Assembly: GCA_003614675.1 (NCBI GenBank)
Contig: ML002393.1
Coordinates: 1-34,311, forward strand
Length of the DNA: 34,311 bases
Direction of reading: 5' to 3'
Source of the DNA: Dimargaris cristalligena
Taxonomy: Eukaryota
Shown piece after piece: positions 1 to 31,423 of the stretch (within the stretch, counting starts at the first letter, position 1; each line of letters starts with the position of its first letter). Under the pieces are notes generated by a model, which was not told the origin of the DNA, made no database searches, and saw nothing but the letters and a program-made list of their open reading frames with translations. The position numbers and the translations under genes were made by a program.

Positions 1-560
1 GGCTAGGCCCCCTATACAATGAGTTAAGTTATTCGCCGCTAGTTTGGCCCTAAATTTATCGGTGTATTTCTCCATTATCGCATGTATGTTTGCCACTGAT
101 TAGGCTGGTCTATAAACTTACGCGACTTCAGCAGCCCTAGATAGTGGCTAATTGCGAATGTACATTTCATTGTCATGGCAACAAGGCGAGTTAGCCGAGG
201 AAAAGTACACTCAATGACTAGGTAAATGGTATGGGCATAAAATGATGGCTCTCTTTACCTAATTTCACTAACCTATGCCCATCGTATCTGCTTTCGCACT
301 ACAGAGAATGCGTACTATACACTAATATCTAAAATAGAGCAGTTCAAACTACTATATTATACAATATAAAGGGGATTGGTCCGTTGTAACCATTGCACAA
401 CCATGGGTAGAGCGGCTGTTATCCTCCCCATGTCCTCCGATATTGTTTTTTTTCTGAAGGGGGGATGCCAAAATAATTCCCCATTGTGAAAATTGTTCAT
501 CCCTTCCGCCCTAGCGGACACTTGAATAAGCCGACTAACTAGGCCAGTCTCGAAAAATAG

Positions 561-570
561 TATATATAAG
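561..570 (+). promoter_or_regulatory. TATA box of paralog 1 (equivalents at 3928-3935 and 7211-7218)
   Basis: TATATATAAG / TATATAAG / TATAAATA at the aligned position, 190-200 nt before each ATG. Confidence 0.65.
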
Positions 571-752
571 TGCCAGGATTTCCCTGTTTACGCAAGTGTG
601 CCCCTTCATCCCCTCTTTAACTTATCAATAGATTCTGTTATTTACGATTCTATTTCCACTCTTGGAACAGGTCTGTTTATGCATTTATATAACTTGCATT
701 TGAGTTAACTACATTTTCGCTGGTCGGACCCTCTTCACCCCAACGTTAAGCC

Positions 753-1664
753 ATGCACATTTCCTATGCTGCTTTTCTTACACTAACTCTGGCCACGGGG
801 TATACCGTTGGTGGACGTCTTCGCCCACAAGCAGACACTGACAATGTCCCACTGGCATTGCTTTTAAACGGGCTATCGGGAAATTCACTGGACTCGGATT
901 TCCACGCTAAACCCTGGGGATTGTCGAATATTGACGAAGAAAGCGATGATAAACGCAGCGCGTATGGTGGCCAACGTCCTGAGATTGCGTTAGAGGACAT
1001 GACCTCGGAGTTTGCTGGGGGGGTTAGCAGCCATTATCTCCAAGCCGGTGATTCCCTTGAATCCGTATATTACGATGCACTCGATAGCAGCGCTTATCCC
1101 GAAGGTGTGAGTGAAATTAACGTCCAGCACTTCAATGACAATGGCTCCGGTGATAAAGAATCAGCACAGTCGTCCACAGCAACTACCCCCTCCCATTCAC
1201 AGGGCTGGCTCACCGATACTCCTGTAGGGCGCGAAAGTGAGATTAGCCTGGGAACTACCGTCAGCCAAATAATTAGCCAGATGCCTGCCCCGCCCAATCA
1301 CGAGATCAATCTCCATTCGCAGCAAATTCCCGACCATTGCCACACGTACCTCTCTCCACCGACTACGCCCAGTTCATCCGCGAACCTCGACATTGAAGAG
1401 AACAGCGGTACCCCGGTGATACCGATGGCTGGCAATGAAACGGTCAAAACGTCCATTAATGCCCGCCTCCCGAATGCGATCCCCCTACCTAAATCGACGC
1501 GTGGGGAGGAAAGGAAGCAAAGCAAAGATTTAGATCAAAAACCTGGTGGTTTGCGGGCTTGGTGCGTCCAACATAGCCGGGCTGAAGGCTGGCATGGTTG
1601 GACAGACCGGCGTAAGAACTGGATTAAATCACAAAAGGATAGAATCAAAAATAGTAGAGACTAG
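753..1664 (+). CDS. Secreted disordered orphan protein, tandem paralog 1 (303 aa)
   Basis: Intronless ORF; hydrophobic N-terminus (MHISYAAFLTLTLATGYTVG); acidic Ser/Thr-rich body; basic Trp-rich C-terminus; clear paralogy to 4128..5042 and 7409..8398; TATA about 190 nt upstream. Confidence 0.88.
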   Translation: MHISYAAFLTLTLATGYTVGGRLRPQADTDNVPLALLLNGLSGNSLDSDFHAKPWGLSNIDEESDDKRSAYGGQRPEIALEDMTSEFAGGVSSHYLQAGDSLESVYYDALDSSAYPEGVSEINVQHFNDNGSGDKESAQSSTATTPSHSQGWLTDTPVGRESEISLGTTVSQIISQMPAPPNHEINLHSQQIPDHCHTYLSPPTTPSSSANLDIEENSGTPVIPMAGNETVKTSINARLPNAIPLPKSTRGEERKQSKDLDQKPGGLRAWCVQHSRAEGWHGWTDRRKNWIKSQKDRIKNSRD

Positions 1665-4127
1665 AGATTTTCGACTTTGTACGCTATTCCTGGCTTTAAA
1701 TGTATTTCATTCCCTAAGAACCGACTTGCCTTGGGCTGCATTCTACGATAATACCAATACCAATATTGATATTGTTACATCCGCAGCCAATACAGAGTCA
1801 TACCCCAGGCGTCAAGGTAGCGAGACCTTAGTGGACCCCATGGACTCCACTGATACTGGTGTTCCAGCCGCAGCATCTTTGACTGAGGATTCATTCCAAC
1901 TACATGTGTCTAGCACGGGGACCCCTGGTGAATTATCACCCTCTGAGGATACCGCTAATGCTGTCATCTAGAACACTTTTCCAGAAGGTCCGATGAACAT
2001 ATTATTAACCTTCCTTGGCTATACTGGATGCCTGTGACGATTCATATAAATAAGCATTGGGTACATACTCTTGTTCTTCAGTTTACTAGCGCTCACATCG
2101 CTCCTGCAAGTCCATATTACTTATACTCGTTCCTTAATAAAAACCGCTCATACTTCACGCTCTTTAACAATATCGTTCCCCCCCCAGACCCACACATACA
2201 AGAGCATACACACGCCTACACAAGTCCACTATAGCAGTGCAATATTTTACCGACTAGTTGTTTTAAACATAGTCAGATCCTACCATTCCCATCTCATGTA
2301 TCTATCACTCCAATCTGTGCCCATGTCTTCCTATAGCAATACAGAACACACAGTAAAACATTAGGTATTTTGATTTAAATGAGAACTTAAAGAGGTGAGC
2401 AGGGCGTATATCGACCCGTAACAAATTTGTGAACTGCTCCTAATGCTGCTGACTTGATTGCCCTTGTTCTGGGAGAGCTATTATAGGATACAGTGTGGTC
2501 GTTAGCCAGGGTCAATTATCCGGAACTTGGATGATCATCTAAGCCTAACAGCGCAAATTAACATACACGTGGGTAACAACAATTACTCGCCTAATCGATG
2601 ATACAGACGAATCCGAATTAAAAGAGAAGGCGAAATATACGTCATATCCGGTTTGGTATGTTTCAATATATATATATATAACAATTTTATACTCATATTT
2701 CAAATAATCTCCCCGTAGAAAAGCATGTTTACGGCCAGGTCGAAGGGTGCTAAAATTAACAAACAATAGTCCTTTAACCACTAGTATATTTAGCGAAACA
2801 GAAATTCATAATTTAATACAGTTGTAATTCAAAAAGGTACAGCGCATTGAAAGCCCTTTTGGATGACTTTTATTTAAACGATAATACTCCAACGAGCAAC
2901 AAATGCCGAAAGAATTCAAGAATATTATTGACCAGCATTCCTTTAATAGGGCTTAGTTCGATACCGAATAAAAAACCATGTTGGATAAGTAGTGGATAGA
3001 GCAAAAAAAAATAGCAAAGGCCCAGCTGGTCAACATGTGGACTATGTCCCTACGTCCGATGCTTATAACGTTCCTCTTTCTGTATAGCAGCCCTACCCAC
3101 CAAAACCATCCACTATGCAATAATTAGAATTGTCCAGATGCGAAACTTCAGAAAGATACTTCACCAAAAATGGTTGGCCAAAGAACGGAGGTAGAATTCA
3201 ACGTCGTGTCTCGCCCAGTTCGACTGTCCTACTCGAAATGTCACTTGACAGTGAATAGGGTGCTACCTAATTGTGTGCCATCTGGAGTATAGGAGAAGAG
3301 CAGCGCCACTTCGTTATCCTCGACAGCAAAGTCCACTTCAACAGTCGGTTTTGGCCACCCGTTTTAGGCCGGGTCACCCATACAGTGAGTTAAGCTATTC
3401 GCCGCTAGTTTGGCCCTAAATATATCGGTGCATTTCTCCACCAGCGCGTCTATGCTCGCCACTAATTAGGCTGATCTATAAATTTACGCGGTTTCAGTCA
3501 CCTTGGATGGTGGCTAACTGCAAATGTACATTTCAATATCATAGCAATAAGGCGAGCTGGCCGAGGGAAAGTAAACTCAATGACTAGGCCAATGGTATAG
3601 GTATAAAATGATACCCCCTCTTCACTTTATTTCTCTAACCAACGCTCATCACATTTGCGGTCGCACTACAGAAAACGCGTACTATACACCGAGATCTAAA
3701 ATGTAGCAGTTCGGATTACTATATCAGACAATATAAAGGGGATTGGTCCGCTGTAACCATTGCACAACCATAGGTGGAGCGGCTGCATTCCTCCCCGTGT
3801 CTTCTCCGATATTGTTTTGGGGTGGAGAGCTCCAAAATAATTCCCCATTGTGAAAATTGTTCTTTCATTCCGCCCTAGTAGACACTCGTATAAGCCCAAC
3901 TAACTAGGCAGCTCTTGACAAATAGAATATATAAGTGTCAGGATTTTCCTGTTTATAAAATAGCCCCTCTACATTCTCTCTTTAACTTACCAATTGGCCC
4001 TCTGTTGTTTTTGACCCAATTCCGCTCTTGGAACAGCTCTGCCTTCGGAAATTTTGACCTTGTATTTGGGCTGCCTATATTCTGTCCGGTTGAAGCCTCT
4101 TTACCCTACTTACTCCAGCGTTAGGCC

Positions 4128-5042
4128 ATGCATACTTCCTACGCCACTCTTCTTTCACTGGCTCTGGCCACGGCGTATACCGCTGGTGGCAGTCTTCCCC
4201 CAAAGTTTAATATTGACGATCCCCCACTCGACTTTCTCCAAAAGGGGTTATTATCGGGGATTTTATTGAACCCACAAAGTGAGCCTGAACCCTGGCGCTT
4301 ATCAATAATTTTCGAAGAAAGCGACGATGAACACAGCACATTTGGCGGCCAACGTCCCCAGCAGGCGGTAGAGGGTACGGCCCCGGAGCTCGGTGGGACG
4401 GCGAGCAATAAGTATCTCCAACTCGGTGGTTCCCGTGAAACCATATACTACGACGCACTCGATAACAGCGCTTTTCCTACAACTCCGAGTAGTATCAACA
4501 CCCAGCCCTTGGATGACCATGACTCCAGCGATGAAGAATCGATCCATCCGTCGACGACAACTACCCCTTCCACTCTACGGGTTCATTTCCCCGCCAATTT
4601 AGCGGGGCGTAGAAGTAAGGATAGTTTAGAACTATCAATTAGGGAAATCATTAGCCAGTTGTCTCAACCGTCCTCTAACGATGCGCCTTCCTCTTCGCAG
4701 TTGGCGAGCAGCCTGTGCCCTGCGTACCTCTCCCCGCCGATTACGTCCAGTTCATCCGCGAACTTTGACGTTGAGGAGAACAGTGATACCCTGGCAATGC
4801 CAATGGCTGACAATGAAATGCTCGAAGCCTACTACAATGCCCAACTACTGAATGAAACCCCCCAACGGAAGTCTACGCGGGAGGATAGAAGGACACATAC
4901 CGAACGTCTAAATCAAAGGTTTAACGATTTTTCGACCTGGTGCGATCGGCATACGCGGGCAGAGGGTTGGCACGGCTGGAAGGGCCGGCGCAAGGGCTGG
5001 ATCAAGTCACAAAAGGATAAAATCATCAATAGTAGAGGCTAG
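4128..5042 (+). CDS. Secreted disordered orphan protein, tandem paralog 2 (304 aa)
   Basis: Colinear with paralog 1 along its whole length (signal peptide, LSIIFEESDD, IYYDALD, YLSPP, RAEGWHGW, WIKSQKD). Confidence 0.88.
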   Translation: MHTSYATLLSLALATAYTAGGSLPPKFNIDDPPLDFLQKGLLSGILLNPQSEPEPWRLSIIFEESDDEHSTFGGQRPQQAVEGTAPELGGTASNKYLQLGGSRETIYYDALDNSAFPTTPSSINTQPLDDHDSSDEESIHPSTTTTPSTLRVHFPANLAGRRSKDSLELSIREIISQLSQPSSNDAPSSSQLASSLCPAYLSPPITSSSSANFDVEENSDTLAMPMADNEMLEAYYNAQLLNETPQRKSTREDRRTHTERLNQRFNDFSTWCDRHTRAEGWHGWKGRRKGWIKSQKDKIINSRG

Positions 5043-7408
5043 AGTTATTCGACTTCATACGTTATCCCTGGCTCTTCATGGGCGTTATTCCCAAAAAGGA
5101 GCGACTTGGTTTCGGCTATATGATTCAATAATACTGACTCCCTTCCCCCACGAGCGCATTATTACGGCAATGCATCATTTTCGCCTTTAGCTGTTGGAAA
5201 TATAGCCAATCCTTATCACCGCCTTCTATTTCTAAGATATATCCCTTACAACCGTACCCACTCTAGTCCATAGCAATGCAGGGTATATAATAAACCCACA
5301 ATCATTTTTGAAATGATGACAAATAACCCGTAGATATGTCGATTTAAATGTAAAAAAGTGATAGTTGATAGGTGAAAAGTGGTGGGCAACGTTTGGGGAA
5401 CAGCAGCCGAATTCATAACGGGGTAGTTCTTGGAAAGTGGTCATTGGCGGTAGGCGAGCGGGGGGTCCTCCTGGGATTGGACTACCTGATATTCGTGAGC
5501 GGTTTCATATAGCCCAATAATGAACCACACAGACTGTGAATGAAAGATTGGCCCCGGCCCAATGTGGCTCACGTCCACTACCATACATTGGTATGTGCGT
5601 ACAAGGTCCGAGCCGGAAAAAAATTGAAGGGAATAGATGAAAACCAATTGTTACACGAAAAGAAAAAGCCTATTCAAAGGAAAACAATACCACGAAGGGC
5701 TAAGGGAGGCGTGAAGTGGACCGAGAAGGGGCGCCCTTAGCCCAAGTGCAATCGCCGAGTAGGCCTAATATCCAAAATGCCTATACTGTCGCCTATCCAC
5801 TTGAACTACAATGCACCACCCGAAGAACAATGAACGGCTACAATTCCAATCGACCATACTATACGACCCGGGTTAAAAATTAGCAAAAAAGTACACGACA
5901 TCCCGGCCGGATGATATCTTTGTAAATTGGCATTGAACTGCGTCAATTTCGGACCAGCTGTGTAAAGTTTTAAATAGTCTGGGTTAGTGCTCAGTGGCGA
6001 GAAATTTGTTTCCGACCAGTGGAATTGGCCCCATCCAATGGGGTTTTCGTTATTAAGTATGGTTGAACCTCCTCCATATGGGAGAAGTTCATCCAAGCTG
6101 TATAACGAAAAATCCATTAGATTCAGCCAATATTACTAGTGAAAAATACATTTCCCATATATTTTCCCATACACGTATAATGAATACCCTTATATAGCTG
6201 GGCCGAATTTCACCCATATTGACTAGCATCCCTCCAAATGGCCTCCACGCGATATAAATGTGAATTCTGGATAAATGGTGGATTGCGAAATAAAAAATGG
6301 TATAGAGCCGGGGGCCAACAAGCGGGGTATGACTCTATCTTCGATGTTTTTGGCAGGTTTGCTAATGTATAGAAGTCCAACCCACCAGGACCGCCCGATA
6401 GATACAATAATTGGAGGCCTCCGACTGCGAAATCAACCCCCCAAAAAATATTCCAACAATAGCTAGCCAAAGAAAGGGGGTTGAATTCAACACTGTACCT
6501 CGCCCAGTTCGACTGTCCCACTCGAAATGGCACTTGGCAGTGAATAGGGTGCTACCTAATTGTGTAACACCTGGAGTATAGGAAAAGAGCAGCGCCATCT
6601 CGCTACCCTCGACGGCGGAGTCCACTTCAACTGTCGGGTCTAGCCACCCGTTTTTTTGGATTAGGCTTCATTGAGCGAGTTGAATTATTCGACACTGGTG
6701 TCGTCGTAAATGTATCGGTGTGTTTCCCCTTCCTAATACTAACTATACTCACCACCACTTGGGCTGGTCCATAGTTTAACGTGTCTTTGGTCGCCCTGAC
6801 GTACGCCTGAGATCGAATAGATATTTTATTGGTATGGCAAAGAGGCGAGTTGAGCGAGGGGATGTAACTATAATGGTTAGGTCAAAGGTATAAGTATAAA
6901 ATGATGCCCTTCTTCCCTTATTTTGGCTAACCAATGCCTATCGCATAGTGTGTTGCACAATAGAAACCACGTACTGCATACTAACGTCCAAGGTGCGGTG
7001 ATTCCAGGATACCAGGTTGGGCTGTATAAAAAGGGATTAGGTCGTTGTAACCTATGTACAACCACTAGCAGAGCAGCTGCCCTCCTCCATTGCTTTTTTT
7101 TTGGAGGGTGAGGGTGCCTAAAAAAATCACGAATACGAAGGCAGTTCCTCCCTTCCGCTCTAGTCGACACTCGAATTAAGTTCACTTAATAGGCGAGGCT
7201 CAAGAAATAGTATAAATACCAGGATGTCCCTGTTTATAGTATAGCACCATTATATTATATTTTTAACTTATCAATAGTCACTCTGTTATTTTCAATATTT
7301 TCACCTCTATTCCACCCTTGGAACAGGTCTGTCTTCGCATTGGCATTACTTGCATTCGGGCTGCCTATATTTTCTTCAGCTGAACAAGCTTCACTCCAAC
7401 GTTAAGTC

Positions 7409-8398
7409 ATGCGTATTTCCTACACCATTCTTCTTTCACTGGCTCTAGCCACGGGGTATACCGTTGGTGGCTGTCTTCCCTCACGGTCTAAGCGCTACAC
7501 TGTCCCGCTCCCCAGTCTCACCAATGGTGAAGTGGAAAATGCTCTGTTATGCCGTTCTCCGATTGATGCTACGTTATCAGTCATTCACGAAGTGAGTGAG
7601 GATGACCTCAGCACGTATGGCGACCAAAACCCCGAATCGGCGGTAGAGGACATGGCATCGGGATTCGTTGAGGAGTTGGGCCATGGTGATATCCAGGCCG
7701 GTGATTCCCGTATAACCGTATTCTACGACGCACGCGGTGAAAGCGCATTTTCCAATGCTCTAAGTGACAGCAACTCCCAATACTTGGATGACAATGCTTC
7801 CAGCGACGATGAATCAGTCCATTCGTCAAACAGCATTACCCCTTCTTCCAGTCTACAGGGCCATTCGCCCTACCTCCTAGCAACACGTGAAAGGCTGGAT
7901 AGGGCCCGACCTGTCATCACGAAAATAGCCAAATCGCGATCTCTCCCGCTCATTACCGATATTCCGTCCCCTTCCCCGTCGCAGCTAACGAACAGACCTT
8001 GTCCCTGGTACCTTCCTTCTCCGACTTCGTCCAGTTCTTCCACGAGTGGCAGCGACGAGCCGAACAACAGCGGTGGTAGCCACGATTTAATGCTGAAGGC
8101 GATGGACGAGCAATTTTTTGAAACCAGCCAAGGTCGACTCCGGAAAGCCCCCCTCCAACCGAAATCGTTTCGGGCGGAGGCAAGACACCTACTCGAGAAT
8201 ACCAAGCAAAGGTGTCATGAGCTTGAAGAATGGGGCAAGCTACATTCTAAGAAAGAGGGCTGGCAAGGCTGGTCGGAAAGACGCAGAAACTCGGTGGCTG
8301 GGTCTGTCAACAAAATGGTGGTTAAGCCTGTCAGAAAAATGGTGGATGGCCTCGACTGGAAGATTTCGGCCATGCAAGCTAACAATAGCGGCTTTTAA
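7409..8398 (+). CDS. Secreted disordered orphan protein, tandem paralog 3 (329 aa, most diverged)
   Basis: Same signal peptide (MRISYTILLSLALATGYTVGG) and motif order: LSVIHEVSED, GDSRITVFYDA, WYLPSP, EGWQGWSERR. Confidence 0.87.
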   Translation: MRISYTILLSLALATGYTVGGCLPSRSKRYTVPLPSLTNGEVENALLCRSPIDATLSVIHEVSEDDLSTYGDQNPESAVEDMASGFVEELGHGDIQAGDSRITVFYDARGESAFSNALSDSNSQYLDDNASSDDESVHSSNSITPSSSLQGHSPYLLATRERLDRARPVITKIAKSRSLPLITDIPSPSPSQLTNRPCPWYLPSPTSSSSSTSGSDEPNNSGGSHDLMLKAMDEQFFETSQGRLRKAPLQPKSFRAEARHLLENTKQRCHELEEWGKLHSKKEGWQGWSERRRNSVAGSVNKMVVKPVRKMVDGLDWKISAMQANNSGF

Positions 8399-9415
8399 TG
8401 GGACTGCTTCATTCCCAAAACACACACACGCATAAATATATATATATATATATATTATTAAATACACGCGCGTGTGCACCTTTACTACAGCAGTACGACA
8501 TTTTATACATAGCCAACCATTCCCAGCACTACTTATACGTATCCCTTTAAACCGCACATAGCCATTCTCTCCCATAGCAATGCAGGACATGCAACAAACC
8601 CGCCATTTTTTATGACACATGACCAATAAAATCTAAGTACTTTGATTTAAATGGAATCAGGTGGAAAACAGTGTATGGATCGCCCACCCTACCACAAACT
8701 CTGTGACTGCTCTCCCTCAACGTTTCCTATTTGACACCTGTTCTGGGAAAGTGATCTCATAAGCCATAGAAGGGTGGGACCCCTGGTATTGGACTAATCA
8801 ATATTCGCCAGCAGTTTCATATATTATATAACCTATAGTGCTGAGCCAGATTTATCTGTGAGTAGCTTGATAAACTTCAACCCAGTGTTACTCGAACGAC
8901 AATTGAAGTGAATAGATGAAGAAGACCCACCAGCTGTCCCAGGCAAAGATATACGGTTTGGATGGAAACGATGCCGTCAACGGGCCAAAGAAAGTGTAAG
9001 TAAACCCGAAGAAGGGAATGGGGTGTCCTCTTTAGCGCAGTTTGGGGCTGTTGGAGCTTACACCTTTGCCACACTCACCATAACTTTCTCTATTAGGGCC
9101 AAATATATAAATACGTATGTGTATTTACAGCAAGTTCACATAGTTGATTAACCCTCTTGAACTTGCATGTCCCCGATCCATACCATCTATCCCAGTACAT
9201 CATCGCCTTTACTACACCACAGCCAGTTTGGCGGACCTTTAACCCCACTGGATTGTCCTGATTGACTTCGCTTGGATCGCTTGCCAACAACATTCCCTCC
9301 CCCCCAGACCGGCCTTTTGCTTTTTATATTTATTTTATATTTTGTTGTCATTTAACCCAAGTCCACCAACCACCACCACCGCACCCTCCGTATCCCCCCC
9401 CCCCTCACCACCACC

Positions 9416-10383
9416 ATGAGTATCCCTGTCGAATCGGCCCCTTCCCCCAGCAACCGTGCCCTGTTATTCACCAGTGCGTACCTGGTCTTACAACAGGGCA
9501 GTACCCTTCTCCGCACCCTCCTGCTTCCGCGCCCGGACCTCATGGTGCGCGAATCCCAGTACATCCCCGGAAGTACCATTGGCAAACACTTTCGCCACCT
9601 GTATGACCATTTCCGTTTGCTCTTGGAAGCCCTCCCAGCGAATGCCGCAGGGGCCACTTTGCCGAAGGAGGACCTCCTCCCCCCCAGCCCACCGCAAGTG
9701 TTCTACGATAAGAGGGATCGAATGGTACGTCACTTTTTAGCCTTGGTTTGATACGTTTATCCAGGAGGGGGGTTAAGACTCTTATATCCCCCCTCTCCCT
9801 TTCCCCGCCGCACCGCCACCTGCATTAACGCAATGGTCACACGGGTCGACTTCTGACTACGGCCATTATGACATCGCTGCTATTGACCGTCAGTTGATCT
9901 AATTATCGGCATTCTACCCAACCTTCTGATCAATAACTGCTTTAATACAAATACAGGTCCCTATGGAAAAGGACCCTAAGATCGCCGCTGAACTTATCGA
10001 GGACCTCGTTGAGAAGCTGCGGAAACTCGAGAATCGTACTGAACTTCCCCTGGAGGCTCCAATTCAGGTTCAAGCCCTCATAGATGGCAAGTCTAATTAC
10101 CAGCTACCCCTGGACTCCACTCTTGGTCGCGAACTTTGGTTCTGCGTCCACCACGCAAGTAAGTATTTATAAATATTCATAAATCTATATAAAATTATGT
10201 GTCCGGGATCTCCAGTAACCTTGACTAACCACCCATTGAACCACTTTTCCGCTGACTATGTAACCACCAGTCCACCATTACGCCATGATTAAAGTGGTTG
10301 GGGCAGAAAACGACATTCAAACCGCCAAAGACTTTGGGATGGCCCCATCCACGATCAAATATTATGATACTCTCTCTAGCTAA
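9416..10383 (+). CDS. DinB/YfiT-like putative metal-binding protein; exons 9416-9724, 9957-10158, 10271-10383
   Basis: GTACGT/GTAAGT donors and CAG acceptors keep frame. Motifs STIGKHFRHLYDHF, YDKRDR, STLGRELWFCVHHAIHHYAMI and FGMAPST are typical of DinB-family proteins. Confidence 0.85.
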
Positions 10384-19878: not shown

Positions 19879-20630
19879 AGGGATAACCTTGCTTAATTTT
19901 TGGTATGGATTCCTGTGTTTTATAGTATCTTTTATTTTTATCTTCTTTATTATTTTATTTCGATAGGGTGCTGCTATTCGCCCCTTTTTTCAAAAAGAAA
20001 CCTTTTGCTGGGCCATTGAGTTGAGCTGGCTTTTTTAAGAATCTAAAATAGATGTTACATAGCGCTAAATTGAGACTGGGTAACTGACTGAAATTCGGTA
20101 TGTTCGAGAGTTACTGGGCCTGGGCATTGGTAAACGGCATCCCAATAGTAACTTGTCTCGGCTGGTGAAATAGAGTGCCTTTTTAAGCGGGGGGATTGTC
20201 TTTAAAGGCGATGTATTTAATCGGTGAGCTTCACTTAGATTTATGAAACTAGGAAATGTCTAGTAGTAGTGGTAATGGTAGTTGTTGGGTGTGGTTTGAA
20301 GTGAAGCCTATAGGTGCCCTAGATCCGGCTCCTAATCCGGACCACTTGGGGCTGATATAGTGAGGGAAATACATTACGGATCACGTGAATGGTAGGTAGG
20401 CTTCAAATTTCATTAGATTGAAGAGGAATGGCACAATATTTGGGATGCATTTTTTGAGAGGGGTCTATTTTTATGTGAAAGTTGTTCGAGACAACAGGTA
20501 GAAGGTATAAAGCCGAAAAGTGGCTCGCCCCACCCATCGATTCCACCTCTTTCGTTATTCGGGACATCGCCTGTCACATCCATCACATTCTATACCAACT
20601 TTACGGTTGCTATCCACTTCATCGACTCAA

Positions 20631-22364
20631 ATGGTACGTGCGAGTAGCCTAGACAAAGACACCGAAGGGAAACCCCATCCACTCGTCACCATACCCATCC
20701 ATCCATCCATCCATCCATCTATATATTCCGATACATGTGTACCGGCCAAGAGGGTCGATTCGGAACGATGAAACCGTCTCGATGGCATCCCAATCCCCCG
20801 CTTCACAATATCCGTAATAAGTACCAACCCTTCACGAGACTAACACTACGCCACTTCCTTTTGCTGATTCCCACTTAACCACTCCCCCGCATCGTCCACT
20901 TCTGTAGGCTCCCACTAAGCGCACTGGTAAGAAGGTGGCCCCCGCCCCTTCCGTGGCCCGTTCCAAGACCACTGGTCAGACCAAGAAGAACCCCCTCTTC
21001 GTGGCCAACCCCCGCATCTTCTCCGTCGGTAATGCCATCCAGCCCAAGCGTGACCTGACCCGCTTCGTGAAGATGCCCGCCTACGTGCGTCTCCAGCGCC
21101 AGCGCCGCGTCCTGAAGCTGCGTCTCAAGGTCCCCCCTGCCGTGAACCAGTTCACCAAGGTCCTGGACAAGAACACCGCCACTAACCTGTTCCGTCTGTT
21201 CAACAAGTACCGCCCCGAGACCCGTCTGGAGAAGCGCACTCGTCTCCGCACCGCCGCCGCCGCCAAGGCCGAGGGTAAGGACCTCCCCAAGTCCCCCAAG
21301 CCTTACTCCGTGAAGATGGGTATCAACCACGTCACTGCCCTGATTGAGGCCAAGAAGGCCCAGCTCGTCGTGATCGCTGACGATGTCGAGCCCCTTGAGG
21401 TAAGAACCACCCCCTTGAGTTGTGTGATATACCATGTGGTGGTGCTGATATTTTGCGAGTTGGTTTGATAATAGCTGGTGGTTAATCAACGACATTTTCC
21501 CCTCGTCAGTATGGCCTTTTTCGCTGGGGGGCTGTCCTCTGAGAGAATGGTCGCGCCTGGATCAGCTACATAATTGGTAGTTCCCTTCGAATTTATGCAT
21601 TCGATCCCAATCCCGACTGGTGATTCAATTACCATTGGTGAGGTTGGGATGTCCTTTCCCATTTTTCACCATTGGAGTCCCTCTTGGGACGACAGTGGCG
21701 TTGCGGAAGGGACTGGGGAACTATATCGCCTAAATATCGTTGGGTGTGTCGGAGGAAAATGAAAGGGGGTGGTGTAGTGGATTATTAGTTAGTGGGGTTT
21801 TCTTGCATGAACACCCCAATGCCTATTAATGCTATTCCCCCACCCCGTATCCTGGCTACCGACACATTAGAATAGTCGTCTCATCCACGCACTAATCCAT
21901 GACCCTTCGATACGGCCCGTTCATCAGAACTAGTACTTAACTCCGCGTCTATTTTTGGACTAATAGTGAGCAATGCTTTCCCCCCATTTTTTTTTGTATT
22001 ATACTGTATTTCTACTCGGTTACTACCACCACATCCCCTGTATATTATTGTATTGTGATAGCTCGTCATCTGGCTGCCCGCCCTCTGCCGTAAAATGGGT
22101 ATCCCCTACTGCATCGTCAAGGGCAAGGCCCGTCTCGGTACCGTCGTGCACAAGAAGACCGCCACCGTCCTGGCCTTCACCGAGGTCCGCGAAGAGGACA
22201 AGAACCAGCTCGCTACCCTGGTGTCCTCCATCAAGGCCAACTTCAACGACAAGTTCGACGAACACCGCCGTAACTGGGGTGGTAACACCATGAGCCAGCG
22301 TTCTCAGGACGCCAAGGCCAAGCGTCAACGCGAACTGGCCAGCTCCATCGCCATCCACGTCTAA
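20631..22364 (+). CDS. RPL8: 60S ribosomal protein eL8 (yeast L8 / human L7a); exons 20631-20633, 20908-21399, 22062-22364
   Basis: [67 protein letters not shown]-only first coding exon; strong codon bias. Confidence 0.97.
21468..21573 (+). ncRNA. Candidate intronic H/ACA-like hairpin in RPL8 intron 2
   Basis: ANANNA (ATAATA, 21468-73), lower stem gctggt/atcagc, internal pocket, upper stem gacattttc/gagaatggtc, ACA at 21568-70, 15 nt after the upper stem. No target established. Confidence 0.4.
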
Positions 22365-23586
22365 GATCTCTCATTATTTCCCCCGTTTTACTCGTTCGGT
22401 CTGCATGATCTTCGGAATGCCCACTAGTTGAGTCTAATAAACTGTCGTGGACGTATTTTGTATTTTTATAGGCTTGGTATCTGGTTGAATACATGTCTTT
22501 AGCAGGGGGGATATATTTAAACAGTTGGCTGTGGATTGTTGTGTTCCAAATTAGGACCCTGTATTCCGCGTTGGATTCATGAACGCTCTGTCGTAGGAGG
22601 GGGTTTACTGCTGTCGTGTGGATATTTGAGCGACACCTCCAGACTGTGCCCTCTAATTCCCACATACTTAAGTTTTCTATTTTGGCTGGAAAATAGGATA
22701 GTTGTGTTTAATAATGAAGGTTGGGGAGGGTGTGTAGTTGTTTTAGATGGAAGTATCCATTTCGGAATCGTATAGGCAAACCGTACCTGCCTTGTATTAT
22801 CTCCTTCTTGCTTGTGCGATGCTTAGCATTCCAGCGTGCTGCTTTGCTTGTAGCCCAGGAACCCAATGAGCGAGTTCCACGCTTGTTTTCCGAATAAACT
22901 GCAGCTCTCCATCTATATACCTCTATGGCTGAGACGGCAATACTACCCTAGTGATTCGGGTGAATCAATAATATACTGGAATCTTCTCCCATCCCAAGCA
23001 CCCGGCGGGACCAAATCCTTGTGTGAGTGATCAGAAAAGAACCCCTGCCTGCTCAGGTGGTTCCGAAACTCCGCATTAATTCACTCCCCCCTCCCCACAC
23101 CTGCAGCAGCAGACACCCATTTCCCTTGGGCTGAACGGGGGGGGAAAGAACGCTCCGCATATGCTGGCGTTCTTAAGGATCCCTCCTCCCGCGGTTCCCT
23201 TGATCCTTCGTTTCGGTTGTTTAATATTTTTTCGTTATTGCGTTGAGTTCGAGGTCCCATTCTCAAGGTAAGCAGGTGTTCTCGCTGGGGTCTGTGCCCA
23301 TCTACATATCTGCTCTACCACTGGACTATGCTATGCGCGGTTCTGGGCTGGCTACTCAGCTGCTCTGACCCTCATCTCGCTCTGATCTAACCTCCCCAGC
23401 CTTACCCGATCTCTGACTCTGCCCTTCCCCAGACGTTCCCCCCCATTTAGCGTCTTGGTCATCCCCTCGTTTCATCTTTGTTTTCTTCACGTACTGTCTT
23501 ATCGATCGATTTTCTGGTTTCGACCCGTCCCCGTTGCTGGTATTCTGTCTCGCTAACTTCGTCTGTTAACCGTACACGATCGCACT

Positions 23587-25683
23587 ATGCTGTCGGTCAT
23601 TGTCTTTGTCCTGGGCCTCTTGGCCGCGGGACTTTACTTCGCCCGCCCGGACCTGTTCGGTGCTGCCGGCTCCTCCAAGACCCGCTCGGGTCGCACTTCG
23701 GGGGGCTCCAAGCCCGCCAAGGACCAGAGCAACAGTGGTAAGAAGGGTAACACTTCCGCCCGAAGCAGCGGTAAGAACACCCACGCTTCGCCCAACGGCT
23801 TTGCCGACAAGACCAGCGTTTCCACCAAGAAGGTGAAGACCGCTACTGGTTCCGTGGAGGCTCCCGCCGCCGAGGCCAAGACCGCCACGAAGGCTAGCCG
23901 TAACCGCAAGAAGAAGGGTGGCGCTAAGAAGACCAACGCCCAGTTCGCGGCCAAGGCGGCTAGTGAATCGGAAGCCGAAGAGTCCGAAGAGGAAGTTTTC
24001 TCCTCTCGCGTTGCTTCGAGCAACCCCTTCGATCTGTTGGACGCGTCTCGCGCTGCCAAGTCGGCTAAGAAGGGTAGGAAGGCCCCCGTTTCGGACGCCC
24101 CCGTCGCCGCTAGCTTTAGCCCTGAATTGCCGTCCCAGGCCCACGCTTCGCTGCCCGCGACCACCGCTCCAATCAAGGCCTCCCGGTCCTCCTCCAGCTC
24201 CTCCTCCTCGCCCGCCACCGATTCGGACGGCTTTGTTCCCGTTAAGCGCGAAGGTGGTAAGAAGAAGGGCAGCCAGGTCCCTTCCAAGACCGCCGCTGCC
24301 CCTGCTGCCCAGCCCGCCCCGAAGGTCGTGGAACGTTCCGCGGAAGCCGAAATTGTGACTGCTGCTCCCGTCTCCGAGCCGGTCACCCAGGACCTCGCCA
24401 CCGGTGAATTGGAACCCGTGGCCGTCGATGCCCCTGCTTCTGGCGTGTCTACCGCTCAGCTGACCCAGCTCGAATCCGAATTGAGCCAGAAGAACGCCGA
24501 GATTGACGCACTGAACCGCCGCCTCCAGCAGAGCCAGACCGAAAGCCAGAAGGTGTCTAAGAAACTTCAGGACATTCAGAACCGTGTGTCCCACCAGGAT
24601 ACCGACCGCCAGGTCTACATCAACCAGATCAAGACCTTGGAGAACAAGGTCGAATCGCTGAATTACACCAACCAGCTGATGTTCAAGCAACTGGGAACCA
24701 ACAAGGAAGCCGAGAAATCCATGAAGCTCTCCAACGCCCAATTGGAACTTACTCAACAGCGCCTGCGCGAGAACGAGACCACCCTGCGCAACGAGATTGA
24801 CCAGCTCACTCGGGCCATGGATCAGCTCCGCAGCGAACGTATGTCCTGGTACACTGATAAGGACTCGACCAACCGCCAGATTCTGGACCTGCAGTCGAAC
24901 CACTCGGCTCTGATGTCCGAGCTTAACACCAGCCAGGCCACTATCGCCAAACTCGGTGCCGATATCGAGGCCAATAAGCATGCCCTCACCCAGAAGGAAC
25001 ACGCTATTGTGTCGTTGGAATCCCTCGTCCAGTCATTCAAGCAGGAAGCCGAGGACCACCGCAAATTCCGCGGAGAATACGAGCAGTTGCTGCCCGAATT
25101 CCAGACCCTCGAGGACAAGCACCGTGCCCTGATCCAGAGCCACCAGGAGATCCAGGCCCAACTTCGCGATGCCCAGGACCAGTCCTCCAGCCGCCAGAGC
25201 CAGGCTTCCAACGAAGCCGCCGAGCTGCGCCAGGAGAACAGTCGCCTCAGCAGTACCGCTGATGAACTCCACAAGGAGCTCGCTGAAATCAAATCGGCCA
25301 ACCAAGCTAAGCTTGGGGAAGCCGAGAGTCAGCTGACTGTCGCTGTTAAGACTGCCGAGAGTGCCGAAGCCACTGTCCAGCAGTTGAAGGATGAACTGGC
25401 CGCGGCCCGCCGGGCCCAGACTGACGCCCAAGTGCAGATTGACGAAGAGCGTGGCGCTGCCAAATCTTTTGAATCTACCCTGGAGTCCACCCGTGCTGAA
25501 CTGAAGGAGGCCGATGCTGCCCAGGCCGCTGCCAAGACCGCTTTGGAGTCCGCCACCGCGGCCGACCAGGCCAAGGCGGACCAGATCACCCAGCTGACCA
25601 AGGAGCTGCAGACCGCTCGCTCCCTGATTGATCTGCTGAAGACCAAGAAGGTCGAGACCGCTCCTGTGGTTGAGGCCGAGTAA
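23587..25683 (+). CDS. Signal-anchored protein with Lys/Ala/Ser-rich disordered region and long coiled coil (698 aa; kinectin/p180-like architecture)
   Basis: Long ORF with high-expression codon bias; N-terminal hydrophobic helix; heptad-rich E/Q/L/K region from about aa 290; upstream GTAAGC donor at 23268 suggests a 5' UTR intron. Confidence 0.85.
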   Translation: MLSVIVFVLGLLAAGLYFARPDLFGAAGSSKTRSGRTSGGSKPAKDQSNSGKKGNTSARSSGKNTHASPNGFADKTSVSTKKVKTATGSVEAPAAEAKTATKASRNRKKKGGAKKTNAQFAAKAASESEAEESEEEVFSSRVASSNPFDLLDASRAAKSAKKGRKAPVSDAPVAASFSPELPSQAHASLPATTAPIKASRSSSSSSSSPATDSDGFVPVKREGGKKKGSQVPSKTAAAPAAQPAPKVVERSAEAEIVTAAPVSEPVTQDLATGELEPVAVDAPASGVSTAQLTQLESELSQKNAEIDALNRRLQQSQTESQKVSKKLQDIQNRVSHQDTDRQVYINQIKTLENKVESLNYTNQLMFKQLGTNKEAEKSMKLSNAQLELTQQRLRENETTLRNEIDQLTRAMDQLRSERMSWYTDKDSTNRQILDLQSNHSALMSELNTSQATIAKLGADIEANKHALTQKEHAIVSLESLVQSFKQEAEDHRKFRGEYEQLLPEFQTLEDKHRALIQSHQEIQAQLRDAQDQSSSRQSQASNEAAELRQENSRLSSTADELHKELAEIKSANQAKLGEAESQLTVAVKTAESAEATVQQLKDELAAARRAQTDAQVQIDEERGAAKSFESTLESTRAELKEADAAQAAAKTALESATAADQAKADQITQLTKELQTARSLIDLLKTKKVETAPVVEAE

Positions 25684-26330: not shown

Positions 26331-27751
26331 TCATCGTTTGGCATAATCGATTTGGAAAGAGTGGTCGTTCAAAGTGGGTTGATCGCCCAACTGCTTCTTG
26401 ACATCGACGGCCTGGCTCTCCTCTTCGTATTCAACGAACGCGATATCCGATTTGCCTGGCACAAGACGAACTTCCATAAAACCATCGTATCTAATCGGGG
26501 TGTGTGTGCGTGGGGAAGAGGGGGGAGGGAAGGGGAATACAAATCAATCAAATGCAGGGTTAGTAACAGTAATAATATACATCTTTCAAGTCCAGCTGAA
26601 TTAAAAGACCAACGTAATTCAAATTTAGCAACCGGACCATGTTATATATACCGGTGGCGCGCATTCTACTTACTTTTCAAAAAGCTCACGCAGCATAGTC
26701 TCGGTGATTTCACTGGTAAGGTTCTGCAGAAATAGAATCTTGTTAGGCGGGGCCGGCTGTACAACAGCGGGAGGACCCGCCATGTGAGGCATACCAGGGA
26801 ATAGGGCGCCAAGCATATGGGGAGGTAGCACACCCGGTGGGTAGGCCATTGGTCCACTCCCCACCGGTGGCATACCTCCTCCGGGCATTTGACCCCCCAT
26901 CCCTTCGGCCCCAGGCGCTAAAGCGCCCGGAGGGACCATCGGTACACCACCACCACCCATGGCGAAGGCGTATGGGTTATGTTTCAGCATTTCCAAAGCG
27001 GCCTGACGTTCCTGGTCGCGTTTTTCCTTGGCTTCCCGATGTTGCTTTTTATAGGCCTGTACATGGGCTTCCACTTTGTCTTCACTGTCACCTTCGCCAT
27101 CTTCATCGCCGTCGTTGTTGGTACTGCCATCTTCGTTTGTTTCGGCCAGGGCTTTGCGCTTGACGGTACTAAACGAATTTGTCCGGGCGTATTGGACGAG
27201 AATGGGCTTATCGAATAAAATAGTTTGTTTAGTGGCCTCGAGGGCTTTGGTGGCAGCCTCTTCGTCTTCAAATACAACGAAGGCTTGGCCACGCATGCGT
27301 AAATTGCCGTGGGCGACAATTTCCACTATTTTACCGTGTGGTTCGTACAATTTGCGAAGCGCTTCCTTGAGAGCTAAAACAGGGGAGAGTGGGAGGTGAG
27401 TCGATCAGTGGAAATAGAGTATGGAGTATTGGTTAGATAGTATAATTTTGCCTCTTCCATCGAGAGGACTGGTATATAATGTTACTAGGAGGTAAGTAGA
27501 AAGGCATAAATAGATCTATATTGATAGGAAACGGAGGTCTAACCTGGTATTTTAATTTTCTCGTTGAGGTTGCTTAAATACAACGTGCTGTTGGGGACAT
27601 TGCACGGTGGGGCTTTGGGTAGCCGTGGCTTCATCAGAGTAGCGGGCATGGGCGGAAATGGGGCCGGGTAGCCGGGCGGCATGTAGGGCGGTAAGCCCAC
27701 CATGGGCATTGGCGGTGCCATGCCGGACGGGGTGCTGGAGGGTGGCTGCAT
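26331..27751 (-). CDS. U1A/U2B''-family two-RRM snRNP protein (U1A-like); exons 27751-27544, 27373-26674, 26490-26331
   Basis: PNSTLYLSNLNEKIK, VAHGNLRMRGQAFVVF, PPNKILFLQNL, EVRLVPGKSDIAFVEY; introns are phase-compatible; start codon is the first in-frame ATG. Confidence 0.92.
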
Positions 27752-29258: not shown

Positions 29259-29745
29259 GTATGCGTGCGAGCTATTCCGTCCATCCATCGCGGCCCCCTC
29301 CCCGTTCGTCAGCCCGTCAGCGTACCCCCTCCCCCATCGCCTTACTCCATACATCCGTCCATGCTATGCCCCGATCTCCGAACACCACTTTCCGACATCC
29401 GCCCCAGAGGTATCCGCACACACGCACGTAGGCATCCATCCATCCATCCATGGATGTGCCGCACGGGCGAACCATCCGTCCCCATTGTCGATAATCCGAA
29501 TCGGCGAAAGACCTACCGTCACGTAGACGAACAATGGTGAATGGGTCGTTCATGCCAACATGGGGCAACTCGCTGGACCAGGCCGCTGACGAATTATCGG
29601 CTCGATGGGATTCCTATTCTTAGAATCAGTTTTTGACCAAACCCATCTCCACCTCTCAAGGCCCGAATCAACCCGTTGAAGCCGAATCCGTTAACTAATC
29701 TCTTCCATTATTCCGGTTCTATCCCTCCCTCCCGTGACTTTCTAG
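29259..29745 (+). other. 5' UTR intron of RPS19 ending directly before the ATG
   Basis: AAG|GTATGC donor, ACTAAT branch near 29694, pyrimidine tract, TAG|ATG. Confidence 0.8.
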
Positions 29746-30408
29746 ATGGCTGGTGGTAAAACTCTTAAGGATGTCAGCGCTGCTGCTTTTATCAAGGCCT
29801 ACTCCGCTCACTTGAAGCGCTCTGGCAAACTCCCCGTCCCCGAATGGGTTGACCTGGTCAAGACCTCCACTGGCCGCGAACAGGCCCCCATCGACCCCGA
29901 CTGGTTCTACATCCGTACCGGTAAGTGAATCACCTTACTGTTACCATACCCAAACGAATGGCGCCAGTACCGTTATTTTACAATGGCCGTAGTCTGACTG
30001 TCTTCTTCCTCTCAGAATATTATTACTTTTGTGGTTGGCATGGCGTTGTATAATTTCTACCTGCGTGAAACCCCATTATTCCACGTGTATTTGATTTCAC
30101 TTGTATCTAATCACTCAAGGTCTCTATTCTATTTTCCCACTGTCTCCCTTTGCAATTCGATAGCTGCCATTGCTCGCCACATTTACGTCCGCGGCAATGT
30201 CGGTGTCGGCCGCGTCAGCAAGGCCTACGGTGGTGCCACTCGTCGTGGGCAGCTCCCCAACAAGCGGTGCGGTTCGTCCGGCTCCGTGGCCCGCAAGGCC
30301 ATCCAGGGTCTTGAGAAGCTCGGTGTTCTGGAAAAGGACGCCGCCGGTGGTCGCATCCTCTCCTCCCAGGGTCGCCGTGAACTCGACCGTATCTCCGCCC
30401 AGGCTTAA
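29746..30408 (+). CDS. RPS19: 40S ribosomal protein eS19; exons 29746-29920, 30164-30408
   Basis: [63 protein letters not shown]. Confidence 0.97.
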
Positions 30409-31423
30409 ATTTTTCTAGCTACATCTGGTTTTGAGAAAGCGCGCCCGTCTTCACAACTCACGTCTTGGGCCCGTTCTTTGTCTTAGGGGTTCCCAATGAT
30501 CGGTCTGTGTTTTATAAACCCATCTCAATAAATTCTATTTTCGAGACAATTCGCCACGGCCCCTGATCTCTGATTAGATTTACATTTGTCATTATTTGCT
30601 ATAAAGTATGCCGTTATTATTCGGGTATTCTTCCGAGTGGCATATTTTTTTCACGTTAATATCATACCCATTTCCGCCAATATTTAGATGCATAGATAGA
30701 GATTAGAAAAATCATCAATCCACGGTAATTGTTTCGGGAAATATAGGTACAGAATAGATTCAGACAATGTATTGTTTTATCAAATCGGCTGTATCTGCTA
30801 TAATAGCTAAATTTGGCGGTAGTGTTTAACGCTTACATCGTTATTTGTATTTGATTATTTCCTTTGAAATTATCGCACTTGATGGTCATTACATTTGTAT
30901 TTACTTCGCAGAGAATTTCCTTTGTTGAGCAAGGGGTGCTTTTATAGCGAGGTGTTGGAAACTAACGTTGTGGTTACTAGGTTTGAATTGATGGAACCCA
31001 TGGCCGTCAATTGAATATAGTTTTAACTCACCAAATAGCCAATTTAGCAGCAATATTCATAGTTTTATTCGCCACAATATGGGTGTAATTCGGCCCAGCC
31101 GTCCATAGTTTTAATTGATATTGGTATTGGAAAACAGGCGAGATAGTTAGATAACTATCAGTGTCGTTAATACACCCTACTCGTTCACCACCCCTGCATT
31201 TTTCTTCCCGTATTTATCACTAATAAATACCATATCAAATATTTCGTTTTGCCGTAATTTATTAAACATTAGCCCTGACAATAGGCAAGTGTTTTACGCC
31301 CCACCGCCTCCGCTCCCATAGCTGGGGCGTCATTCTCGGTTCCAGAAAACTCCGCCAAGGTCGCGAAGTATACCTCAAAAATAATAATAACCAAAGAGAA
31401 ATCCTTAGGTGACCTCTCATGAA

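Follow-up and report, generated by a model that had tools for sequence, protein, structure and literature searches.

To our knowledge, budding yeast is the only setting in which structured introns that serve the self-control of ribosomal proteins have been well studied, and RPL30 and RPS14B are among the yeast genes that carry autoregulatory intron structures. In yeast RPL7B, mutually exclusive intron structures, one of which is bound by the protein, are reported to autoregulate splicing (PMC12311795), and the RPL22 intron has been described as acting as an 'allosteric switch' (PMC13630204). In archaea, L7Ae is reported to regulate its own mRNA through a kink-turn (K-turn) (PMC5539422, PMC6298567), and this regulatory K-turn is described as unfolded without the protein (PMC6298567). 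Here we describe an RNA domain predicted within the second intron of the gene for eL8 (RPL8) of the early-diverging fungus Dimargaris cristalligena (Zoopagomycota), on contig ML002393.1 of assembly GCA_003614675.1, of which 34,311 nucleotides (positions 1 to 34,311, hereafter the window) were analyzed. The core of the intron, at 21578-21868 of the plus strand, is an autonomously folding, single-copy, sense-strand RNA domain inside an otherwise ordinary, old phase-0 intron; its fold is statistically exceptional and without a family, and a function is plausible. Like the autoregulatory introns of yeast (RPL7B, RPL22B, RPL30 and RPS14B), it is a structured element in a ribosomal protein intron, and one of its arms has two registers. 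However, the gene here is that of eL8, the host belongs to Zoopagomycota, the predicted architecture combines a junction with a rod, and there is no sequence relation to the yeast elements.

The minimum free energy (MFE) fold of the core consists of two modules. The first is a four-way junction, or cloverleaf, of 146 nt (21578-21723), in which a 9-bp closing stem (21578-86/21715-23) encloses three arms, namely, arm 1 (21588-21603), arm 2 (21604-21650) and arm 3 (21651-21713), that are connected by linkers of only 0-1 nt. The tip of arm 3 (21675-21692) consists of a symmetric tandem G.A loop, with GA 21675-76 facing GA 21691-92, a 5-bp helix and a UCUU cap. A linker of 19 nt (21724-21742) leads to the second module, the rod (21743-21868), a long imperfect hairpin of 45 pairs with the basal stem 21744-52/21859-67, inner helices formed by G-rich and C-rich strands, and a 6-nt apical loop (21803-08); the sequence AGAATA (21869-21874) follows immediately on its 3' side. 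The original prediction had listed the closing stem, the three arms, the rod and AGAATA, and all the listed pairings are found in these places as part of the MFE fold.

The stability of this fold, which the original prediction had proposed to compare with that of shuffled sequences, is far beyond chance. The z-scores of the junction and the rod were each obtained from 200 dinucleotide shuffles, and the comparison for the whole core from 100. The junction has an MFE of -70.5 kcal/mol compared to -43.1 +/- 3.8 in the shuffles (z = -7.18), none of the 200 being as stable; its centroid structure is identical to the MFE structure, and its ensemble diversity is 6.6 versus 34.5 in the shuffles. For the rod region (21740-21880), the MFE is -54.5 (z = -3.82, with 0 of 200 shuffles as good), and the rod itself reaches -53.6 kcal/mol versus -35.4 +/- 4.0, with none of 100 shuffles as stable. 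The whole core (291 nt) folds at -127.5 versus -89.6 +/- 4.8 kcal/mol (z about -7.9), again unmatched among its shuffles, none of which reaches its ensemble diversity either (15.3 versus 70.5 +/- 20.9). Both modules persist when the full intron is folded: the closing stem and seven of the nine rod stem pairs form with probabilities of 0.85-1.0, and the two outermost rod stem pairs with probabilities of 0.01 and 0.15 in the same ensemble. The 146-nt junction also offers a compact, well-defined RNA for structural work.

The sequences compared with the core are unremarkable in this respect. Intron 1 of eL8, the intron of the S19e gene, eL8 exon 2 and the two flanks of the core within intron 2 (21400-21577 and 21877-22061, the latter with z = +0.56) all yield z-scores between -0.74 and +1.27, so the structure belongs to the core rather than to introns of this genome in general. 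When the entire window was scanned on both strands in sliding segments of 146 nt (~2,734 in all), the segment at 21576 (+) ranked third, and, counted by locus, the junction came second, behind a simple foldback near position 6000.

That foldback, a near-perfect long hairpin at ~6020-6150 (z -5.8 for 5950-6230, minus strand), bears on the possibility that the core is neutral debris of local inverted duplications or of an old foldback insertion, devoid of function and tolerated in a weakly constrained intron. The 60 nt that adjoin the foldback (6162-6221) have an inverted copy at 31075-31134 that is 72% complementary, and the two together look like a small foldback or a repeat of the type of miniature inverted-repeat transposable elements (MITEs); thus, this genome does make hairpin DNA. 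The near-perfect helices of the core could reflect youth instead of selection, and the TA found on either side of the closing stem would fit a TA target site. Nevertheless, we consider such a neutral origin somewhat less likely than the reading favored below, inasmuch as a four-way junction with 0-1-nt linkers is not one inverted repeat, the core is single-copy across the window and, at 80% likeness or above, across four assemblies, and its G.U pairs favor the transcribed strand. Specifically, the fold of the sense strand includes 11 G.U pairs versus 2 in that of the antisense strand; in the foldback used for comparison (6020-6150), the two counts are in balance (3 versus 4). Neutral transitions in a palindrome are expected to create G.U as commonly as A.C, and among the 1x1 mismatches of the sense fold only one is A.C; the one-sided binomial probability of finding 11 of the 13 G.U pairs on the sense strand is about 0.01. 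This bias fits selection on the RNA. The antisense folds are also weaker, at -56.7 kcal/mol for the junction and -43.9 for the rod, so that the sense strand is better by 14 and 10 kcal/mol, respectively, and the GA/GA loop of arm 3 is stabilizing on the sense strand only. Should the core prove neutral after all, it would stand as a caution that a z-score below -7 combined with strand-biased G.U pairs does not establish function.

The uniqueness of the core was assessed at several levels. Neither repeat comparison nor single-sequence covariance models detected a second copy inside the window. Among contigs from four genome runs, with a likeness of at least 80%, 21578-21868 was covered by the locus's own contigs only, and over 20600-22400 the contigs of the four runs displayed zero differences. 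Covariance models of the junction and of the rod, each derived from one sequence, were searched against the window together with 80 metagenome loci (308,231 bases in total) and matched only themselves, apart from the antisense image of the rod and one chance match to the rod model (E = 0.47). Accordingly, a MITE or foldback transposon was rejected as an identity of the core, given the lack of any other copy in the window or, at 80% likeness or more, in the contigs of the four runs; with only TA on each flank, there is too little sequence to qualify as a target-site duplication. Introner-like elements, which are reported to be longer than ordinary introns and to have stable predicted structure (PMC3609843), share these two features with intron 2, as MITE foldbacks do. 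However, introners and MITEs come in hundreds of similar copies, whereas the core is single-copy and its phase-0 intron site is also occupied in a distant eL8, that of two metagenome loci; an introner-like identity was rejected on these grounds.

The site of the intron indeed appears to be older than the core. A metagenome scan with eL8 exon 2 retained 80 loci (best amino-acid identity, 66%), of which 77 match both exons and 3 exon 2 only. At the exon 2/3 junction, 64 of the 77 loci have no intron, and two (L002 and L003, with eL8 sequences 59% identical) have an intron of 55 nt at the same phase-0 site as eL8 intron 2; in 10, the exon matches lie 369-627 nt apart and the alignment does not extend to the junction, which leaves the position uncertain, and the remaining one is anomalous. 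The other ribosomal protein introns in the window are 274 nt (eL8 intron 1) and 244 nt (S19e, 29921-30164) long. With a 55-nt intron at the same site in distant eL8 genes and with shorter sister introns, intron 2 looks like an old intron to which the core is an addition. In the closest named relatives, the eL8 proteins are 65-68% identical; the database proteins matched include P0019 from Dimargaris verticillata and P0002 from Dispira parvispora.

The eL8 gene itself occupies 20631-22364 (+). Its exon 1 (20631-20633) is the ATG alone, and exon 2 (20908-21399; 164 codons) and exon 3 (22062-22364; 100 codons and the stop) both match the Pfam family PF01248 (L7Ae/L30e), in agreement with the assignment, in the original prediction, of the element to RPL8 intron 2 and of eL8 to the L7Ae family. 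The D. cristalligena database protein P0001 (265 aa) consists of M, the translation of exon 2, to which it is 100% identical, and that of exon 3 (22062-22361). Intron 1 (20634-20907; 274 nt; GTACGT...ACTAAC...TAG) is unstructured (z = +1.24, plus strand). Intron 2 (21400-22061; 662 nt; phase 0; GTAAGA...TAG) interrupts the protein sequence at ...EPLE/PIE and contains a likely branch-point motif, ACTAAT (21959-21964), recognized by analogy with the ACTAAC of intron 1, and, as read from the sequence, this motif is followed by a pyrimidine tract, with the first AG more than 10 nt downstream being the 3' splice site that is used. Retention of intron 2 would lead, after 22 codons, to an in-frame TGA (21466-68), and because translation would end at this early stop, any block of splicing would lower the output of eL8. 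A second ACTAAT (21891-96) is located just 3' of the rod, with AGs at 21926-27 and 21932-33 downstream; judging from these motifs, the former could serve as a decoy for the branch point and the latter provide an alternative 3' splice site, whose use would yield an unproductive mRNA. Other contigs in two genome runs contain, on the opposite strand and with 4 mismatches, a match to a 34-nt segment (21943-21976) in which both the likely branch point ACTAAT and a U-rich AUUUUUGG motif are included; this segment may be a short repeat or a shared motif of intron ends.

Taken together, the exceptional stability and definition of the fold, the confinement of structure to the core, the sense bias of the G.U pairs and the single copy support an explanation that we favor tentatively, namely, that the core acts in cis, as a structured domain of the intron, and influences the splicing of eL8. 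Under this model, from which we infer both a splicing effect and the binding of a protein, the core would exert its effect on the eL8 pre-mRNA in cis: as a rigid platform for the binding of a protein, it would set or adjust the efficiency with which the unusually long intron 2 is removed. If so, an independent example from an early-diverging fungus would reveal the breadth and the variety with which such control of ribosomal proteins evolves, and it would join the gene of an L7Ae-fold protein with a four-way-junction architecture.

The nature of the putative protein partner may be hinted at by a G.A motif, albeit not by the one that was singled out originally. The hint that the tandem G.A pairs of arm 3 might make an L7Ae-type binding motif fails as stated: GA 21675-76 and GA 21691-92 form a symmetric 2x2 loop of tandem sheared G.A pairs which, lacking a 3-nt bulge, is not a K-turn. 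Thus, of the earlier interpretation, the location in eL8 intron 2, the reality of the nested fold and the absence of a known family stand, and the hint drawn from arm 3 does not; the more general idea of a G.A motif survives as a fit to a sequence pattern in an alternative register of arm 2, which was identified post hoc and is not the MFE structure. Owing to a short direct repeat in arm 2, two partners are available to its 3' strand (21642-50), namely, 21604-12, which is used in the MFE fold, and 21610-18, giving rise to two mutually exclusive registers. In the second of these (21610-21650), a descriptor scan revealed a candidate C/D-like K-turn, in which a canonical (C) stem of 9 bp (21610-18/21642-50) is followed by the bulge GGU (21619-21), the core pairs G21622.A21641, A21623.G21640 and U21624.U21639 (3b.3n = UU), and a 5-bp non-canonical (NC) stem (21625-29/21634-38) with a 4-nt loop as its cap, so that GUGAUUC faces GUGA. 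This register has a predicted energy of -13.0 kcal/mol versus -20.7 for the MFE arm, a gap of 7.7 under a model that gives non-canonical pairs no credit, and it would free six nucleotides of the junction (21604-09). With a C stem of at least 9 bp and an NC stem of at least 5 bp, the K-turn pattern occurs twice in the 68,622 nt scanned. The other strong match, at 23144-23178, has a C stem of 9 bp, an NC stem of 6 bp and U.G at 3b.3n, and lies upstream of an open reading frame (ORF) of 698 aa (23587-25683).

Conceivably, then, arm 2 switches between its two registers, the second of which would display the C/D-like K-turn; a protein with the L7Ae fold, either surplus eL8 itself or Snu13, would capture this K-turn, and the capture, by freeing the six junction nucleotides, would lead to remodeling of the four-way junction. 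The full version of this scenario, in which capture by surplus eL8 (or Snu13) remodels the junction and blocks the removal of intron 2, with the consequence that translation runs into the stop at 21466-68, we regard as speculative and, in all its particulars, improbable. If valid, it would amount to a eukaryotic counterpart, at the level of splicing, of the self-regulation of archaeal L7Ae, achieved via a previously undescribed intron RNA architecture. The likeness to the archaeal system is that eL8 has the L7Ae fold (PF01248) and that the K-turn of arm 2 likewise is not the ground state; the difference is that the archaeal control is exerted on translation, through the 5' leader, whereas here the site is in a spliceosomal intron and consists in a fit to a pattern.

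A further precedent comes from mammals, where intronic K-turn/K-loop RNAs (ktRNA/klRNA) bound by the 15.5K protein are reported to suppress the excision of their host introns (10.64898/2026.08.03.742641). As described in the same source, these RNAs have U.U at 3b:3n, commonly a non-canonical -1b:-1n pair, and a median length of 36 nt (10.64898/2026.08.03.742641). As far as that description goes, the arm-2 candidate resembles them in being intron-borne, in having U.U at 3b:3n and in its non-canonical -1b:-1n pair; however, its GUGAUUC and GUGA are buried in a 146-nt junction. The source defines members of this class by a terminal stem, RUGAUGA close to the 5' end and CUGA close to the 3' end (10.64898/2026.08.03.742641). 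An identity of the core as klRNA/ktRNA or box C/D small nucleolar RNA (snoRNA) was rejected, as the sole sense-strand match to the C box within one mismatch is GTGCTGA at 21442, and the only two CTGA motifs of the sense strand, at 21445 and 21539, do not fall within the core. A literature search combining eL8 with K-turns found eL8 listed as a member of a K-turn-binding family and no more. Neither this RNA nor self-regulation by eL8 came up in that search or in those on Dimargaris introns, RPL7A intron autoregulation and Zoopagomycota snoRNAs, and the matches listed for RPL7A autoregulation dealt not with eL8 but with RPL7 (uL30) of yeast or with other genes.

Several considerations weigh against a role of the core in eL8 splicing and against the K-turn in particular. 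Known autoregulatory sites of ribosomal proteins often overlap splice signals; the core is separated by 178 nt from the 5' splice site and by about 95 nt from the likely branch point. The K-turn of arm 2 was found post hoc, is not the predicted ground state and has U.G as its -1b.-1n pair, and minimal K-turn patterns are no more frequent in intron 2 than expected by chance (24 versus 21.2 +/- 4.9 in shuffles). Furthermore, the site lies in an already palindromic region; as a sequence pattern, it is a testable lead rather than evidence of binding. A zipper stem that would bring the ends of the intron together was rejected: the best local duplex, ~21424-48 with 22021-49, reaches -23.3 kcal/mol, which is matched by 18 of 100 shuffles. 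This pairing is highly probable in the full-intron ensemble, and the full-length duplex of the flanks has z = -0.88. The predicted structural distance that separates the 5' splice site from the branch point is 39 (median of sampled structures, 48.5), which is not below that in 25 shuffles (median 55, range 3-114), so a simple role in compaction is left without specific support. In S. cerevisiae, intron stems are reported to change the levels of retained introns (10.1101/2022.07.22.501175), and structural branch-point distance is reported to correlate with splicing efficiency (PMC2536676). The present intron is similar to those with zippers or long stems in that it is a long ribosomal protein intron with stable internal stems, but here end-to-end pairing is at the level of chance, and what stands out is a self-contained domain in the interior of the intron.

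Instead of acting in cis, the core might yield a stable orphan non-coding RNA (ncRNA) that is released from the excised intron and acts in trans, in the form of the 146-nt junction, the 125-nt rod or the ~290-nt whole. The closing stems are blunt and stable and the fold is well defined, such that the closed helical ends would shield the RNA from exonucleases, and fungal ribosomal protein introns are described as classical hosts of small RNAs (PMC8476143). In addition, loops of the two modules are complementary to each other: the arm-1 loop (21593-98) and the apical region of the rod (21805-10) can form 6 pairs, including one G.U (UUAUGC/GCAUGA), and so can, with 6 pairs, the internal loop of arm 3 (21660-65) and the lower loop of the rod (21756-61; CAUUUU/AAAAUG). 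These complementarities, noticed post hoc, could represent tertiary contacts that join the junction and the rod, and hint at one particle. Against a trans-acting RNA, snoRNA boxes are absent from usable positions, 20500-22600 lacks an Rfam match even at E<=10, and no known mechanism would stabilize such an RNA; we deem it unlikely. Runs of five T (21662-66) and four T (21798-801) inside the fold make a separate gene transcribed by RNA polymerase III unlikely as well.

The remaining candidate of this kind, a divergent snoRNA of the box H/ACA (or C/D) type that would reside in eL8 intron 2, has some appeal at the level of shape, as the large internal loop of the rod (21753-65/21847-58), located above the lower stem, resembles a pseudouridylation pocket, and ACA trinucleotides are present at the 3' foot of the rod (21862 and 21864), next to AGAATA (21869), which fits ANANNA. 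However, the layout of the boxes already largely refutes this identity, which we consider highly improbable. The would-be hinge, that is, the linker at 21724-42, lacks ANANNA, and both ACAs are located inside the lower stem of the rod, where most of their bases are paired at a probability of 0.99. The spacing by count from the upper stem of the rod to ACA 21864 is 17 nt; for an H/ACA pocket complementary to rRNA around a target U, the criterion is 14-16 nt from the box. When AGAATA is itself taken as the H box, there is no structured hairpin past it, the downstream sequence (21877-22061) being unstructured as indicated above, and no ACA until 22031. As for the C/D variety, there is no C box within one mismatch except for GTGCTGA 21442, and Rfam yields no matches. 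Canonical H/ACA snoRNA was therefore discarded along with the box C/D type.

The absence of an assignable family, which the original prediction had noted, is borne out by Rfam 15, with 0 matches over the whole window at the gathering score and 0 at E<=10 over 20500-22600. A tRNA or tRNA-like element was rejected, as ARAGORN found 0 tRNA genes in the window, and a topology like that of U1/U11 or a tRNA-derived short interspersed element (SINE) was rejected given that there is no leader complementary to the 5' splice site, the order of boxes is wrong and there is no Rfam match. A scan of bacterial-type promoters and terminators produced nothing informative.

Several other features of the window are worth recording. 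A (CATC)n microsatellite is present both in eL8 intron 1 (20693-20722) and at 29432-29452, just upstream of the S19e start codon, where it sits in an apparent 5'-untranslated region (5'-UTR) intron of S19e with its TAG end at 29746; ribosomal protein genes may have it in common in their first introns or leaders. Positions 1-10000 comprise three tandem units of ~3.3 kb, with segments that are 64-89% identical, and each unit contains an ORF of ~300 aa (753-1664, 4128-5042 and 7409-8398) that has no Pfam match. Finally, the minus strand at 26740-26990 has a predicted structure that ranks high in the window, with z -3.4, in a G+C-rich, low-complexity coding stretch of an RRM-protein gene, and this structure is probably an effect of composition.

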